Shown here piece by piece: positions 8,603-56,603 of a stretch of 64,000 nt of DNA. Below the pieces are notes generated by a model. The model was not told the origin of the DNA and did not search any database. It saw only the letters and a list, made by a program, of their open reading frames with translations. The DNA comes from a virus. The first letter of the stretch is position 1; every line of letters begins with the position of its first letter. The position numbers and the translations under genes were made by a program. The stretch covers positions 37,588-101,587 of the IMG/VR virus record IMGVR_UViG_3300032245_001170; one strand, given 5' to 3'.

Positions 8603-8825
8603 TGGGACTCAACTTTGCAAGTCTGTTGATCCAGATTTGTTTTTTCCTGAGGACTACACAGACCGTTTGAGCGTGATGAGCGCCAAAGCTGTGTGCCAGG
8701 GCTGTCCGCTAACCATTGCTTGTTTAGAGTATGCTATGTCAGATAGCAGTCTTGATGGTGTTTGGGGCGGAACTACCCCCCAAGAAAGAAAGAACCTAAG
8801 AAGACGGAAACGAGCCCTAGTATGA
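8571..8825 (+). CDS. whiB: WhiB-family transcription factor
   Basis: C..DPDLFFP..CxxCP...C..YA...GVWGG. Confidence 0.92.
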   Translation: MDLYSESAPFDGTQLCKSVDPDLFFPEDYTDRLSVMSAKAVCQGCPLTIACLEYAMSDSSLDGVWGGTTPQERKNLRRRKRALV

Positions 8826-18661: not shown

Positions 18662-18991
18662 ATGGAACATGACAATGAGCCTAGTTGGGCTTGGAGATAC
18701 GACGCTAAATGTCGAGGAGAAGATACAGAGATATTCTTTCCTCCGAGAGATAAGGCGTTATACAAACCTATAGCTAACAAAGCGAAAGCTATTTGTTGGG
18801 GGAAAGACGGTAGACCCGCTTGCCCGGTTAGGAAAAATTGCCTTAAAGAGGCTATCATTAACGATGAGTTGCATGGCATCTTTGGTGGAATGTCTCACCG
18901 AGAAAGAAATGCAGCAAAGCGTAAGTATGAAAAACAAGGTTTAACACTAGACGAATGGATAGAACAAGATGGCAAATACGGGCAAACCTAA
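18662..18991 (+). CDS. whiB: WhiB-family transcription factor (second copy)
   Basis: C...IFFP..C..CPV...C...GIFGG. Confidence 0.9.
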   Translation: MEHDNEPSWAWRYDAKCRGEDTEIFFPPRDKALYKPIANKAKAICWGKDGRPACPVRKNCLKEAIINDELHGIFGGMSHRERNAAKRKYEKQGLTLDEWIEQDGKYGQT

Positions 18992-35683: not shown

Positions 35684-37714
35684 TTGTTTTCTTTTAAATT
35701 AGCCGAAGACTTTGTAAACTCATATAAGACCAAGACAGTTCCTTGGGGATATGCAGACGCTGCCGGAAATAGCGTAGGTGAAATTACTTTCTTAAGAACA
35801 TACTCTCGTCTTAAAGAAGATGGAACCAAGGAGACTTGGGTTGAAGTATGCGAACGTGTAATCAATGGGATGTACTCTCTACAGAAAGACCACGCTAAAT
35901 CTCAAAGACTTCCTTGGTCTGATTCCAAGGCCGCGGCTTCTGCTAAGGAAGCTTATGATCGTTTGTTTAATTTGAAGTGGACTCCACCAGGACGTGGTCT
36001 ATGGGTAATGGGAACTTCAATTGTCAATGAGCAGAGGAACTCTGCTGCGCTACAGAATTGTGCTTTCGTTTCAACTATGGAAATGACAAAGCTCAACCCA
36101 GCAAAACCATTTGCTTTCTTAATGGAAGCATCCATGTTAGGTGTCGGAGTAGGGTTCGATGATAAGGGGGCTGACAAGGAATTCACAATCTATGAACCTA
36201 CCGAAGGAGATATATATGTCGTTCCAGACACCAGAGAAGGATGGGTCGAGTCAGTTACGGCCGTCATCAATGCCTACCTCAAGCCAGATAGCAAAACTCC
36301 AATATTTGATTACAAAGAGATCCGCCCATCAGGCACTCCGATCAAAACGTTTGGCGGAACAGCCGCGGGACACGAACCACTAGAGCGTCTACATAACTAT
36401 ATTCATAAATTGTTCGTAGGTCGTGGTGGAGAGAAGCTAACTCGTAAGGATATTGCCGATATAGGCAACCTCATCGGGGTTTGTGTTGTAAGCGGTAACG
36501 TACGTCGTTCTGCAGAACTACTTATTGGCCGTATTGATGATGAGGACTTTCTCAATTTAAAGAATGCTGATATTTACCCAGAACGCAACTCCTATGATCC
36601 AAAGAACCCGGGATGGGCTTGGATGTCTAACAACTCTGTTGAGGCAAAGGTAGGCTCTGATTTCTCTAAGATTATTGATGGCATTGTCCGCAATGGTGAG
36701 CCGGGAGTAGTCTGGATGGATGTATCCCGCAAGTACGGTCGTTTAATTGATCCACCTAACAATAAGGATTGGCGTGTTGCCGGATATAACCCATGTGCTG
36801 AACAAAGCCTTGAATCTTTTGAAATGTGTACCCTTGTAGAGACTTACTTGAACAGGCACGACTCCTTGGACGATTTTAAGCGCACCCTAAAGTTTGCCTA
36901 TCTATATGCCAAGACTGTGACCCTTCTCCCTACTCACTGGGAAGAGACCAACGCCATCATGCAGCGCAATCGCCGTATTGGTACCTCAATCTCAGGCATT
37001 GCCAACTTTGCAGACAACAACGGTTGGACTGTATTAAGGGACTGGTTGAATGAGGGATATGGTGTCGTAAAGGGTTACGACGATTCATACTCAGAGTGGT
37101 TGGGTGTTCGACCATCTATTAAAATGACAACTGTAAAGCCTTCCGGAACCGTATCTATCTTGGCAGGAGAATCACCTGGAGTTCATTGGGCTTCCGGAGG
37201 TAAGTTCTTTAATAGAGCAATTAGGTTTGCTAACTCTGATCCAATGCTGCCGCTATTCAAGATGGCAAACTACCGGGTAGAGCCAGCATCCGAATCACCG
37301 GATACAACCTCTGTTGTCTTCTTCCCTATCAAAACTGATGCTAAGCGAGCAGAGAAAGAAGTATCTGTACACGAAAAGGTAGCGCTTGCGGTTGTAACGC
37401 AACGCTATTGGTCAGATAACTCTGTATCTGTAACTGTAACCTTCGACCCTGAGAAGGAAGCGGACTCAATCGCTTCAATCCTTCACATGCACGACGGTCA
37501 GCTGAAGACTGTTTCGTTCTTGCCTATGGGCAACACTGTATACCCACAGATGCCTTACACTCAGATTACTGAGAGTGAGTATGAAGATGCCCGCATGAAG
37601 CTGTTCCCAATCGACTTTGCCGGAGTGTACGCAGGTATGGCGGCGGATGCAGTTGGCGAGGCGTATTGCACTACAGACGCTTGTGAAGTTAAGCTGATTA
37701 AAGATAATAAATAA
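35684..37714 (+). CDS. nrdJ: Class II (B12-dependent) ribonucleotide reductase, monomeric RTPR-type
   Basis: RTYSR, PPGRGLW, NCAF, GNVRRSA, NPCAEQ, VKPSGT, C-terminal CxxxxC. Confidence 0.93.
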   Translation: MFSFKLAEDFVNSYKTKTVPWGYADAAGNSVGEITFLRTYSRLKEDGTKETWVEVCERVINGMYSLQKDHAKSQRLPWSDSKAAASAKEAYDRLFNLKWTPPGRGLWVMGTSIVNEQRNSAALQNCAFVSTMEMTKLNPAKPFAFLMEASMLGVGVGFDDKGADKEFTIYEPTEGDIYVVPDTREGWVESVTAVINAYLKPDSKTPIFDYKEIRPSGTPIKTFGGTAAGHEPLERLHNYIHKLFVGRGGEKLTRKDIADIGNLIGVCVVSGNVRRSAELLIGRIDDEDFLNLKNADIYPERNSYDPKNPGWAWMSNNSVEAKVGSDFSKIIDGIVRNGEPGVVWMDVSRKYGRLIDPPNNKDWRVAGYNPCAEQSLESFEMCTLVETYLNRHDSLDDFKRTLKFAYLYAKTVTLLPTHWEETNAIMQRNRRIGTSISGIANFADNNGWTVLRDWLNEGYGVVKGYDDSYSEWLGVRPSIKMTTVKPSGTVSILAGESPGVHWASGGKFFNRAIRFANSDPMLPLFKMANYRVEPASESPDTTSVVFFPIKTDAKRAEKEVSVHEKVALAVVTQRYWSDNSVSVTVTFDPEKEADSIASILHMHDGQLKTVSFLPMGNTVYPQMPYTQITESEYEDARMKLFPIDFAGVYAGMAADAVGEAYCTTDACEVKLIKDNK

Positions 37715-49147: not shown

Positions 49148-49431
49148 TTGAGATAGATAGAGAGCACACTGAATTACTGAAGGAATTGCGTGAGACTCAC
49201 AACCACAGCCCCTCTTGCGTTGCAGAACTACATACACAGCCTCTGTCGCGTCTATGACTATGCCTCTGCTCTTACTTAGGCAGGTAACTATCTCCCTGCG
49301 GGTGCCTCGGCACCTAAGTCCGTACTGTTTCGCTTCTTCACGCCCCCTCTATGATAATAGTTACACTCACATAGAATCCTCGTTCTCGGTGCAATCAACA
49401 GCCTATTCAGTGTGCCCTCTGTCCATCTCAA
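49148..49431 (-). ncRNA. Putative structured intergenic RNA C
   Basis: 27-nt terminal inverted repeat 49148-74/49405-31; internal three-way junction. Confidence 0.65.
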
Positions 49432-49884: not shown

Positions 49885-50376
49885 AACTAGCCTTTCTAAT
49901 AGAAACACGGGATTATCTTTACGCAAGCACATTGCAACCCGTGTCTATCCTTGTGTAAATACTCTCAGATAGAGAGTGAGAGATACATAGGCTCAGGACT
50001 GTAATAGTCTCTGCGTTTAAGTCGTAAACACCTATGTATCTTCCACAACCTACCTGATAACAGCCATACACCATAGTCGTAGACCTGGTGTGTCTCCCAA
50101 TGCTCATAGTTAGATAATTAGCAGTAGCCAATTCTCTATGATGAGAGATGTATCACATTGTGAGATGAGAAAGCCCTAGCCGAACTTTGAAGGGGACGGC
50201 TAGGGCTTCTCGATAGACAGAAGACACGACAGCAGCAGACTAGACTCGGGGGAGAAAGCAGGTTCCCTATGGCTACGAACCAATAGGGCTTTATCCACTC
50301 CCCATCTACGCCCATAGATACTATGGACATAGAAAGGAAGTGGGCGGGGGTTTCCCCCCACCCACTAACTATCTAA

Positions 50377-50901
50377 CTAAGCAGATACTTTCTCTGATAC
50401 TAACTGGAACGACAAGAGTCGTTGTGCGGAAGCAATGAGGTCTTCCAACTCTTGACGAGCCTTTGGTGTCTTTACCATAGACACCTTCTGTAAGGACTTG
50501 ATGGCTGTGGCAATGTTTGCCTCAGCATCTAGACCGAACTTGGCTTTCTCTGCTTGGTCAAACAAGACCTTTGCGGCAATCTCTTTCTCAAGAGTGTTTA
50601 TCTGGGCAAAGAAGTCCTCAGACTCGTAGTCCAAGATGGACTCGATGACTTCATACTTCTTAGTGATGACATCACGCATAGCGTAGACAGTTTCTGGGGA
50701 AGTGCCGTAGCGGTATGAGATGTAACCCCCGAATAATACGAGAGCCTTAGCAGAGTCTAACTTCTCACCACTCGTGATGAAGTTAGATGGGACAAGCGTC
50801 TTATCTGCGCTGAAGTGCTTACTCGCTTGCTTGATGGACTCAACAGAGCCACCCTTGCCACGAGTCGCAAGGAGCGCGGATAGGTTTTCGCGTGCTGACA
50901 T
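50377..50901 (-). CDS. First gene of the early arm, unknown function
   Basis: 174 aa; RBS AGAAAG; followed by a GC hairpin. Confidence 0.7.
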   Translation of the reverse strand: MSARENLSALLATRGKGGSVESIKQASKHFSADKTLVPSNFITSGEKLDSAKALVLFGGYISYRYGTSPETVYAMRDVITKKYEVIESILDYESEDFFAQINTLEKEIAAKVLFDQAEKAKFGLDAEANIATAIKSLQKVSMVKTPKARQELEDLIASAQRLLSFQLVSEKVSA

Positions 50902-51066
50902 TTTCTTGCTTTCTACTGCTGGGAGACAGGGCTACCCAATACAGCGTGCCCCTACTAGGAGTTGCACCTAGTAGAGGCTAGCGAGAAAGTCTGCTGCTGT
51001 TATTACCTTGAACCTTTGGTGTCTGCCACCCTTGCCCCTCTATCTTAGTTTTCCGTTTTCTCCCAA

Positions 51067-51130
51067 TTTGTCCGTTTTGTCCGATTTGTCCGTTTTGACC
51101 CCCTATGCCTTAATTGTCCGTTTTGTCCGA
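51067..51130. repeat. Tandem 9-bp TTTGTCCG(T/A) repeats at the strand-switch junction
   Basis: Units at 51067, 51076, 51085, 51094 (degenerate), 51113, 51122. Confidence 0.85.
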
Positions 51131-51239
51131 GTTCGGCCAGGTGAGACAGATTGTTGAGGTTATTTACATACAGGCAGTGGCCTAAAAATCGGGGGGATTT
51201 GGGGGATTCTAGGCAGTAGCCGGGGAGTAGACTACCTAC

Positions 51240-54312: not shown

Positions 54313-56603
54313 TGCCTAAAAAGAAAAAACCAAATATTGGAAAGATTGTTGCTACCGGCAAGAAGATTAAGACAGAGCGTCTTGAAAAAAGAAAAGCTGG
54401 TATTGAAGCTGCTCAAGCAGCTACCGTAGAAGAATTAAAGACTACTCCCAGAAAACCTGCTGCAAAGAAGGCAGCACCATCAGCTCCTAAAAAGCCTGCT
54501 AAAAAAGCACCGGCCCCAGGAAGTAGAGTAAATGAATTTGATCAACTTAAGTCTACTCTTAAAGCTGATGCACCAGAAAAAGTACAAGAACCTGGTCGTC
54601 CCGGAGCAGCTGAATTTTCTAGTGAAGGTGCACGTCAAGCAAATATGAGAGCGGCTGCAGAAAGAGCAGCAAATCCAGAAGTTCGTTATGATCTTAGTGA
54701 AATTCCTTCTGGATCAAAACCAGAAGATATAAAAGCAGTAAGCGCTGCTAAAGAAGATCCTAAGTTAACTCCAAAGCCAACTATGGAAGCTTTGCCTACC
54801 GAAGCTGAGCTAGCACTTCAACGTAGACGCAATGCTCCATTGGCTAGGCCACAAAAGTCTGGTATTTTAACTGGTGGTACTCCAGAGCGTTATACACCTA
54901 CTACAACCGATCCTTCAAACGACAAAACTCGTTTAAGTCGTGGTATGGGTATTGCAGGAGAAGAAAAGGGAATTATTTCTCATGCAATCAACCTATTGAA
55001 CCGAGACAATGAAGTTCTTTGGCGTAGTGGAAAGTTATTTGAAAAACCAAAGATTGCAACTAGCTATGAGGATGTCCGAGACACTCATCAACATCGTTTA
55101 GCAAAAGTTATGGATACTTTTAAAGTTTCAGAAGATGCTTTAAAGGCACACGCTGCTGCAGAAAAAGGCGGCTCACGCAGAGCTTACGAAGATACTATTG
55201 AGGAACTACATTCAGCTACTCAAGAACACAATGACTTCTACGGTAAAAAAGTTCAGCTAATGCCTGGACCAAACGATTCTTGGCAAGATCCATCTACTGG
55301 ACAAACACACCCAGTAGCTGCAAATCATCCAAATATGCCAGCAGCGTTTATGAGAACAAAGCAACCTATTACACGAACAACCATGACACCAGAAGGTCGT
55401 AAATTTAAGCGAGGTCACGAAGGTTGGGACTCTGTGACTGTTGCTGGTGGAACAAAAGTTTGGCGTCAACAGACTGCTCCTGAAGGAATGGACCTAGTAG
55501 ATCATCTTCGTACTCAAATATTGGCAAATCATGCTGCAGGCGCAGCTGGACGATCTAGAAAAGTTCGTGAAGCTACTACAGTAATTGATTCCCTCAAGGG
55601 TGGAAATAAAGTAATTGGTCTTAGACAACGTGGACGTGCAGAGCCTGGTACAGGAATTCCTGCTGTGTCTACACAACCTACGGCAAGTACTGAGCCAAGA
55701 AAACGTAACGCCGTAACTGTTAAGTATGACCCAGGTCAAAACTCAGTTACAGAAGCTTTAATTGCTCCTAAGGATGCCCCTACCGGTTTGCCTACAGGTG
55801 ATAAAACAAAGCCAAAACCAGTCAAGGCACGTTCAGGTAGAGTTCTTGTTAGAAAGGGAACTACTGGTTTACCTATTAGCTCTATGAACTTGAAAACAAG
55901 AGAGCCTGAAGTATCCGTAGATGGTGGAGTTGTACCTGCAAAGAATTTACTTCGACCTTTGGTAGATAAGAATGCAATGCTTCCTGACAAGGTTCCAGGT
56001 GCAGAAGTTGTTCCAACAGCTAAGCCTGTTAAAACAACTAAAGAAGAAAAAGCTTTAGCTGCTGCTAAAATGAAAGAGAAAGGCGAAAAGGCACGTGGTG
56101 TTGGTCCTTTACAGAAGAACACCGTAAACGTTGCTGGAAAGCCATCTCTACTTGCAAACCCTCAAATGGCTCTGCCTGGGTTTGAAAACGTAGAGAATCT
56201 TCGTGTTGGTGGAAGAGCTCAACGACTTCTAGCAGAGGCTCATGGAACTACTCCTAGAGAAACTACCGCTATGGAAGACGTACGCACTATTAAGAACGCA
56301 GGGTTGATTGTTAAGCCTACTCCAAGCACTAGCCGTGAGGTTGCTGTTAGAGAAGGTTCTCCAAGTCAAAAGAACAGGGCTAGAAAAGCCGCTATTCAAA
56401 CTCGTCAAACCAGTGGTCCAATGGAGCAACCTATGCTTCCAGGAAAAGAACTACGTTCAGCTGCTTTTGCTCAAGGCGGCACCACTGAAAAGATCAGTGA
56501 GAAGACTCGCGTTCTTCAAGGAGAAGCAAGAAAACCTTCTAGGTCTTCTAACCCAATCTACGTTGCAGCAAACAAAATTCTTGAAGAGAATAAAGATAAG
56601 TAA
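54312..56603 (+). CDS. Large basic, disordered protein
   Basis: 763 aa, K/P/A/R-rich, no Cys. Confidence 0.65.
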   Translation: MPKKKKPNIGKIVATGKKIKTERLEKRKAGIEAAQAATVEELKTTPRKPAAKKAAPSAPKKPAKKAPAPGSRVNEFDQLKSTLKADAPEKVQEPGRPGAAEFSSEGARQANMRAAAERAANPEVRYDLSEIPSGSKPEDIKAVSAAKEDPKLTPKPTMEALPTEAELALQRRRNAPLARPQKSGILTGGTPERYTPTTTDPSNDKTRLSRGMGIAGEEKGIISHAINLLNRDNEVLWRSGKLFEKPKIATSYEDVRDTHQHRLAKVMDTFKVSEDALKAHAAAEKGGSRRAYEDTIEELHSATQEHNDFYGKKVQLMPGPNDSWQDPSTGQTHPVAANHPNMPAAFMRTKQPITRTTMTPEGRKFKRGHEGWDSVTVAGGTKVWRQQTAPEGMDLVDHLRTQILANHAAGAAGRSRKVREATTVIDSLKGGNKVIGLRQRGRAEPGTGIPAVSTQPTASTEPRKRNAVTVKYDPGQNSVTEALIAPKDAPTGLPTGDKTKPKPVKARSGRVLVRKGTTGLPISSMNLKTREPEVSVDGGVVPAKNLLRPLVDKNAMLPDKVPGAEVVPTAKPVKTTKEEKALAAAKMKEKGEKARGVGPLQKNTVNVAGKPSLLANPQMALPGFENVENLRVGGRAQRLLAEAHGTTPRETTAMEDVRTIKNAGLIVKPTPSTSREVAVREGSPSQKNRARKAAIQTRQTSGPMEQPMLPGKELRSAAFAQGGTTEKISEKTRVLQGEARKPSRSSNPIYVAANKILEENKDK

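Follow-up and report, generated by a model that had tools for sequence, protein, structure and literature searches.

Why would the two untranslated ends of a phage messenger RNA (mRNA) be complementary to each other across an entire gene? The question is raised by a compact unit of about 880 nucleotides (nt) in the IMG/VR virus record IMGVR_UViG_3300032245_001170, of which we analyzed positions 37,588 to 101,587 (hereafter the window: 64,000 nt, the last 64 kb of a 101.6-kb record, with a G+C content of about 44%). The unit centers on an open reading frame of 174 codons (ORF174, 50377-50901) for a conserved phage protein; the gene and all features of its mRNA lie on the minus strand, and coordinates are those of the window. 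A reading of the sequence alone (the original prediction) had proposed that three nested complementarities between the 5' and 3' untranslated regions (UTRs) enclose the gene and its own ribosome-binding site (RBS), and that this folding back would restrict the translation of a toxic host-takeover protein to nascent or processed RNA, as a timer. By comparing related units, we find it nearly certain that one of these pairings, here called P2, is a selected RNA structure of the mRNA strand.

The long-range helix between leader and trailer

At the core of P2 is a perfect 13-mer (P2a), present as the original prediction had described it, in which the leader strand ACAGCAGCAGACU (50988-51000) pairs with the trailer strand AGUCUGCUGCUGU (50229-50241). 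A proximal extension of four pairs (P2b; CUCG at 50982-50985 with CGAG at 50245-50248) brings the helix to 17 base pairs (bp) in this genome. Taken from this genome alone, the 13-mer is not significant, because perfect inverted repeats of at least 13 nt within 1 kb are as frequent in the window (one) as in Markov shuffles of it (1.7±1.5).

For comparison we drew on 62 relatives of the ORF174 protein in a large protein collection. The DNA of 25 loci and one more yielded 19 distinct units, with protein identities of 43-89%; a clade at 62-64% identity (P0005-P0007) lies outside these 19. The relatives come from lake metagenomes and represent freshwater phages. A pattern scan for the invariant part of the trailer returned no contigs beyond the known relatives, and a blastn search with the region found no match among 50,697 phage records. 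The most distant unit, L045 (JBBRXZ010000210.1, 1784 nt), is binned into a metagenome-assembled genome of the Saccharimonadales; it is probably a phage fragment in the wrong bin that says nothing about the host.

We assessed P2 with our own scripts, which fold the duplex between leader and trailer segments of 30-42 nt separately for each sequence and apply a permutation test. In all 19 units the 13-mer corresponds to the core of a duplex at the same place, with arm sequences that are wholly different between lineages (leader arms ACAGCAGCAGACU, AUAACAGCAGGC, AGUAGGUAAUUCU, AGUUAGGUGA and AAUAGGC...UGCUAUUGCG). In each unit the longest stretch of leader-trailer complementarity lies at about -92 to -99 relative to the AUG and at 126-140 nt past the stop codon, and the cognate duplex has an energy of -24 to -31 kcal/mol in every unit. 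Across relatives P2 measures 16-21 bp, in two sub-helices (10-14 bp distal, 4-10 bp proximal) separated by a small loop or bulge; at the position of P2b, relatives carry GUGUGCG/CGCACAC or UGCUAUUGCG/CGCAAUAGCA. Both sub-helices are kept in L045, each with an entirely different sequence. The nearest fetched relative in our first alignment (75% identity) has three double compensatory changes within the 13 bp (C-G to U-A, G-C to A-U and A-U to G-C). The original prediction had named covariation in related phages as a check, and matching changes keep the pairing in every one of the 19 units.

When trailers were permuted among leaders (15 distinct trailers), none of 20,000 permutations matched the cognate sum (-413, against -264±23), and cognate pairing compared with shuffled trailers gave Z-scores of -4.7 to -8.1. 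Energies favored folding of the sense strand over the antisense strand by 3.7 kcal/mol or more in 7 of 17 units, and nowhere was the sense strand worse by more than 1.4, so the pairs in P2 that are not Watson-Crick are G·U pairs on the mRNA strand.

Folding of complete transcripts agreed with the duplex analysis. Each of 11 full-length RNAs (about 880 nt) was predicted to form 15-21 P2 pairs in its partition-function fold. The minimum free energy of the window RNA (877 nt) is -351 kcal/mol, compared with -273±7.5 for shuffles (z = -10.5), and its minimum-energy and centroid structures both include P2, P2b and the adjacent leader hairpin P3 described below. The minimum-energy fold also suggests a possible distal extension of 3-5 bp (AAGG at 51009-51006 with UCUU at 50224-50221), the trailer side of which is invariant. 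RNAalifold on a MAFFT alignment of leader and trailer did not recover P2, because the arms are out of register in the alignment.

P2 thus stands as a selected pairing of 5' UTR and 3' UTR around the gene, borne out by its presence in 19 of 19 units and by the permutation test. It closes the whole 174-codon mRNA into a loop of about 750 nt by joining the 5' UTR, at about 95 nt before the AUG, to the 3' UTR, some 130 nt past the stop codon. The outer end of the helix places a small 5'-terminal hairpin, P1, beside the 3' terminator hairpin, T2.

The ribosome-binding site, the outer helix and the protein

The pairing that gave the original prediction its regulatory sense joins the RBS AGAAAGCA (50914-50907) to the trailer octamer TGCTTTCT (50260-50253). 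It is present in the window, where the octamer reads UGCUUUCU in the RNA, but the helix is not kept in relatives, and the RBS complement is confined to this genome. The Shine-Dalgarno motif itself (AGAAAG, 50909-50914; AGAAAGG or AGAAGGGG in relatives) is complementary to CCUUUCU-3', which we take to be the tail of actinobacterial 16S ribosomal RNA (rRNA). In the nearest relatives the trailer octamer is AGTTATCT (AGUUAUCU), uncompensated on the leader side, and in others it forms part of a local hairpin. The region from -16 to +3 around the RBS has 8.0 expected pairs with the trailer in the window compared with 0-1.2 in ten relatives. Across the 11 folds, the mean unpaired probability of the RBS was 0.35-0.63 in full-length RNA and 0.29-0.64 in RNA lacking the trailer arm, with no consistent direction of change, and the conserved helix P2 sits about 70 nt upstream of the RBS. 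Since RBS and trailer pair in the window only, and removal of the trailer arm leaves predicted accessibility unchanged, RBS sequestration is no conserved trait of the element; the ideas of a nested pairing that includes the gene's own RBS, and of an RBS closed by the trailer, do not hold across the family.

A similar fate met the outermost pairing, AGACAC (51024-51019) with GTGTCT (50227-50222). Both hexamers are present in the window and the trailer copy is invariant, but the leader side becomes AGACCA, AGACCG, AGAAGC or AGCCCA in relatives, uncompensated, so that the helix is not conserved. Its leader bases instead form P1 (51018-51030, GGUG-GCAGA-CACC), whose weak stem of 2-5 bp covaries locally by lineage (CGGU/ACCG, GCUU/AAGC, GGUG/CACC, CGGGU/ACCCG) around a CAG(A) loop; the CAGA loop is invariant in relatives. 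Two direct repeats make up the first 27 nt of the leader and recur inside the gene: 51025-51036 equals 50848-50859 (a 12-mer, 12 of 12), and 51010-51024 resembles 50457-50471 (a 15-mer, 14 of 15). Of the two, our check covered the 12-mer, which the window shares with no more than its two closest relatives, and we set these repeats aside as lineage-specific or due to chance.

As for the toxic host-takeover protein, nothing marks ORF174 as a toxin. Its structure model is all-helical and soluble-looking (predicted local distance difference test score, pLDDT, 84). No family was found in PHROGs or Pfam, Foldseek against the PDB and BFVD gave nothing below an E-value of 0.3, and the ESM Atlas gave no usable match. 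The N-terminal 60 residues are near-invariant among relatives, with synonymous changes in the codons. The toxins of hok and aapA are membrane peptides of about 50 amino acids, whereas ORF174 is a soluble-looking protein of 174.

The minihelix, the transcript and the genomic setting

Between P2b and the RBS lie two further leader hairpins. The first, P3 (50948-50978), is the 12-bp hairpin with a T-loop-like cap (TGCAACT) of the original prediction, and covariation supports it: 8 of its 12 pairs show compensatory changes, and it has exactly 12 bp in all relatives. Its 7 + 5 stacked pairs and 7-nt loop mimic the acceptor stem and T-arm of a transfer RNA (tRNA), that is, a minihelix. With its closing pairs the loop reads GGUUCGAnUCC in most relatives, the canonical tRNA T-arm, and GGUGCAACUCC in the window; the seven loop nucleotides are UUCGACU, UUCAACU or UUCGAUU in most relatives and UGCAACU in the window. 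The gap from P2b to P3 is 3 nt (CUA) in the window and 0 nt in most relatives. P3 has no CCA end, D arm or anticodon arm, and its 3' flank is RCGC. ARAGORN found no tRNA or transfer-messenger RNA (tmRNA) in the window and 13 loci, and Rfam returned nothing near a gathering score in the window and its relatives. Bacterial Y RNAs carry tRNA-like elements (PMC4201824), and both Y RNA and tmRNA resemble P3 in placing a coaxial 7 + 5-bp stem with a T-loop beside a helix of distant 5' and 3' segments; P3 differs in lying in an mRNA leader and in lacking a CCA end and D and anticodon arms. No Y RNA or tmRNA model matched and no Ro/TROVE protein was seen, so we rejected either identity for the element and keep the likeness as an analogy only. 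The second hairpin, P4 (50916-50945), lies just 5' of the RBS and occurs in several interchangeable versions. Relatives with differing P2 arms have P4 versions in common, and vice versa, indicating that leader modules have been shuffled by recombination.

The start of the transcript is marked by a -10-like box, TAAGAT (51042-51047), found where the original prediction had placed it and replaced at equal distance in relatives by TAAACT, TATAAT, TAAAAT, TAATCT or TAGTCT, all of the form TAnnnT. Upstream of it we saw no recognizable -35 box. Directly upstream, an array of the 9-nt repeat CGGACAAA(A/T) occupies 51067-51122. Four matches cluster at this locus, the only one with the array in the window, and the total of 11 matches was reached in none of 100 shuffles; all relatives keep 3-6 copies. 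Given the lack of a -35 box, these repeats may be binding sites for an activator or initiator.

Transcription was assessed from assembled metatranscriptome contigs of close relatives in four lake runs, which do not show RNA ends or amounts. Contigs from two studies (depths 18 and 25) start at about 51024-51025, some 18-20 nt past the -10 box and inside P1, and one of the RNA contigs extends to 50295, 44 nt beyond the hairpin H1 that directly follows the stop codon. A read-length contig covers 50308-50161, from the trailer arm through T2; its depth of 3 against 25, like the uncovered stretches above 51025 and below 50081, is no evidence of RNA levels or ends. From the starts and extent of the contigs we infer that the gene is transcribed from the predicted promoter, that H1 is no absolute stop, and that molecules uncut from leader arm to ORF exist.

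H1 (50339-50366) is GC-rich and terminator-like, and in the window it matches the terminator pattern of a hairpin followed by a U-tract. Termination of all transcripts at this hairpin (50340-50368), ahead of the 3' pairing segments, would have counted against the original prediction; the contig that reaches 50295 reads through it. The supposed U-tract is CUCCCUAUCUAUG in relatives and forms the 5' arm of H2 (50301-50338), a conserved, U·G-rich hairpin of about 17 bp into which the pyrimidine tract following H1 is folded. H1 is probably not a full stop of transcription.

The 3' UTR continues after H1 and H2 with two further small hairpins, the P2 trailer strand, a 16-nt linker and T2. The linker GUGUCUUCUGUCUAUC (50212-50227), which includes the GUGUCU of the outermost predicted pairing, is identical in 19 of 19 units. 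T2 (50167-50211) is a near-invariant hairpin of 14-15 bp followed by CUUUCUCAU, which is likely the true 3' end of the transcript. The linker and T2, with its loop GUCCCCUUCA.., are near-invariant though the proteins are only 43% identical, and this degree of sequence conservation exceeds what a plain terminator would need.

Several further observations concern this end of the unit. In some relatives the T2 loop is complementary to an RBS of the GAAGGGGAC type. In the window clade only, AUGGGGAGUGGAUAAAGCCCUA (50284-50305) can pair with the 3' arm of T2 and its tail (50157-50178; 22 nt, 77%), a pairing that competes with the terminator hairpin. All relatives conserve the nucleotide sequence of the stretch after T2 (50100-50165, ..AUCAUAGAGAAUUGGCUACUGC..AACUAUGAGCAUUGGGAGACACACCAGGUCU), which resembles the next promoter and the start of a small ORF (ATG at 50107). 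Copies resembling GGCYACUGCC also occur upstream, near 51172 and 51215.

In the genome, ORF174 is the first gene of the minus-strand arm and adjoins a divergent intergenic region that holds the 9-nt repeat array. The same arm contains an inverted repeat of 27 nt (89% complementary, 49148-49174 with 49405-49431) around an ORF-poor element of about 284 nt, a candidate double-stranded processing site. Proteins encoded by the record include terminase, portal protein, ribonucleotide reductase and a CobS/CobT-like pair. It also has two WhiB-family genes (G000:C1:46197-46385 and 56279-56500; window positions about 8610-8798 and 18692-18913), which point to an actinobacterial host, as the original prediction had assumed.

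Possible roles of the helix

What is conserved in P2 is double-strandedness, irrespective of sequence, over 16-21 bp interrupted by small loops, perhaps about two helical turns. In the early mRNAs of phage T7, with their RNase III sites, and in lambda sib retroregulation, double-stranded elements are used by host RNase III to mature or destabilize mRNA; those elements are local hairpins, whereas P2 joins strands about 750 nt apart, on either side of the gene. Closer in architecture are the leader-trailer helices, or processing stalks, of bacterial pre-rRNA, which RNase III cuts (PMC10250234). There too, distant complementary flanks enclose a whole functional RNA and are kept by covariation rather than by sequence, and a tRNA-like element lies in the same precursor; the present case differs in that a translated phage mRNA is enclosed, by a shorter helix (about 17-21 bp). 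The icaR mRNA of Staphylococcus aureus likewise pairs its 3' UTR with its own 5' UTR, making a double-stranded RNA that RNase III cuts (PMC3868564).

Given the conservation of a duplex rather than a sequence, the second, 27-bp stem in the same arm, and the rRNA and icaR precedents, all of them indirect grounds, we favor a stalk through which an abundant phage mRNA would be matured and/or stabilized, a role to which we give roughly even chances. P2 would form only in complete transcripts, once the trailer has been reached. Host RNase III could then cut it, a duplex of about 20 bp with small loops being a typical substrate; an RNase III gene is present in an actinobacterial control genome but absent from the phage, whose host is actinobacterial by its two WhiB genes. 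Whether cut or not, P2, with P1 and T2, would keep both ends of the RNA in structure and out of reach of 5'-end-dependent nucleases and 3' exonucleases. Several observations weigh against such a stalk. Unbroken RNA contigs lead from upstream of the leader arm into the ORF and show that uncut molecules exist, and at only 16-17 bp some of the duplexes are short for RNase III. Nor does the stalk model explain the presence of a tRNA-like minihelix beside the helix, or the invariance of the 16-nt linker and the T2 loop.

The fold-back silencing of the original prediction, in which the 3' UTR closes the leader and translation proceeds only co-transcriptionally or after 3' processing, has precedents in icaR (PMC3868564) and in hok, a type I toxin-antitoxin system in which the full-length mRNA is inhibited by folding back (PMC9841398). 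The minimum-energy and ensemble folds of the window RNA do pair AGAAAGCA with UGCUUUCU (8 pairs expected), and pyrimidine stretches in the trailer and the T2 tail resemble an anti-Shine-Dalgarno sequence, CUUUCU. As in hok, the 5' and 3' ends of the full-length mRNA pair, here through P2, but the phage unit lacks a small membrane toxin, an overlapping reading frame and a conserved sequestration of the RBS; a crude consensus scan for an antisense RNA gene opposite the leader showed no promoter-like site on the plus strand there. The 3'-UTR motif of icaR pairs with the Shine-Dalgarno sequence and blocks initiation, whereas here the conserved helix lies off the RBS and the 8-bp RBS pairing is peculiar to the window. 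Because that helix is found in one genome only (the trailer octamer changing uncompensated in the nearest relatives), accessibility is unchanged between full-length and truncated RNAs, P2 lies at a distance from the RBS and the protein is not toxin-like, a translation timer is a minority possibility that we rate as rather improbable. Another account would make the minihelix the functional center. Minihelices are minimal RNase P substrates (general review, PMC11143913), and P3 could recruit RNase P or another factor that binds the tRNA elbow, with P2 gating access such that nascent RNA is cleavable and the closed full-length RNA is not. A stem of exactly 12 bp, a canonical UUCRANY T-loop closed by G-C in most relatives, strong covariation and the 0-3 nt between P2b and the first minihelix pair all fit this account, but the 3' side is RCGC rather than RCCA, G replaces U55 in the window clade and L045, neither ARAGORN nor Rfam recognized the element, and RNA contigs span the predicted cleavage site. 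We consider such a primary role for the tRNA mimic unlikely.

Among units with proteins only 43% identical, the linker of 16 nt and the loops of T2 and P1 (CAGA) are invariant, as would be expected if the UTRs were a scaffold for a sequence-specific protein, with P2 merely holding the binding surface; that protein might be ORF174 itself, in autoregulation, and its near-invariant N-terminus fits. ORF174 matched no RNA-binding domain or fold, however, and we regard a protein scaffold as quite unlikely. It is very unlikely that the trailer is released as a 3'-UTR-derived small RNA that pairs in trans with new leaders: the short contig confined to 50308-50161, at a depth below that of the ORF contig, and the strong hairpin at the trailer end are compatible with this, but this contig has roughly the length of a single read and could stem from another strain, and intramolecular pairing is strongly favored, the folds predicting pairing in cis. 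Least credible of all is that the arms are inverted repeats at the DNA level, for instance sites at which a recombinase inverts or mobilizes a cassette, or the product of chance. They do flank the whole gene, and single-genome statistics equal chance, but the permutation test excludes chance, and recombination sites at the DNA level are excluded by G·T pairs that occur on the mRNA strand only, by bulges and internal loops that vary between relatives, and by arm sequences that are not conserved, unlike recombinase sites. The orientation is moreover the same in all 19 units, and U·G pairs are also abundant in the conserved local hairpins of the 3' UTR.

A broader reading, which we put forward tentatively and hold to be less likely than not, is that a family of freshwater actinophages builds this abundant mRNA like the precursor of a stable RNA. 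Helix and minihelix would either hand it to the host enzymes that process rRNA and tRNA (RNase III, RNase P) or lock its ends in a bacterial 'closed loop', and what becomes of the mRNA would depend on whether the stalk is nascent, closed or cleaved. To our knowledge, only a handful of bacterial mRNAs with paired UTRs have been described, icaR and hok among them, none with covariation support as clear as that for P2, and we know of no phage mRNA inside a leader-trailer helix next to a tRNA mimic. If it is correct, an mRNA organized like a stable-RNA precursor would add a new mode to the post-transcriptional control of phage genes. The compactness of the unit is an advantage for its study, and its natural variants are ready-made compensatory mutants. 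Should P2 control stability or processing, the element would show how phages of very abundant freshwater Actinobacteria secure high expression of a key gene and would provide a transferable mRNA-stabilizing module.

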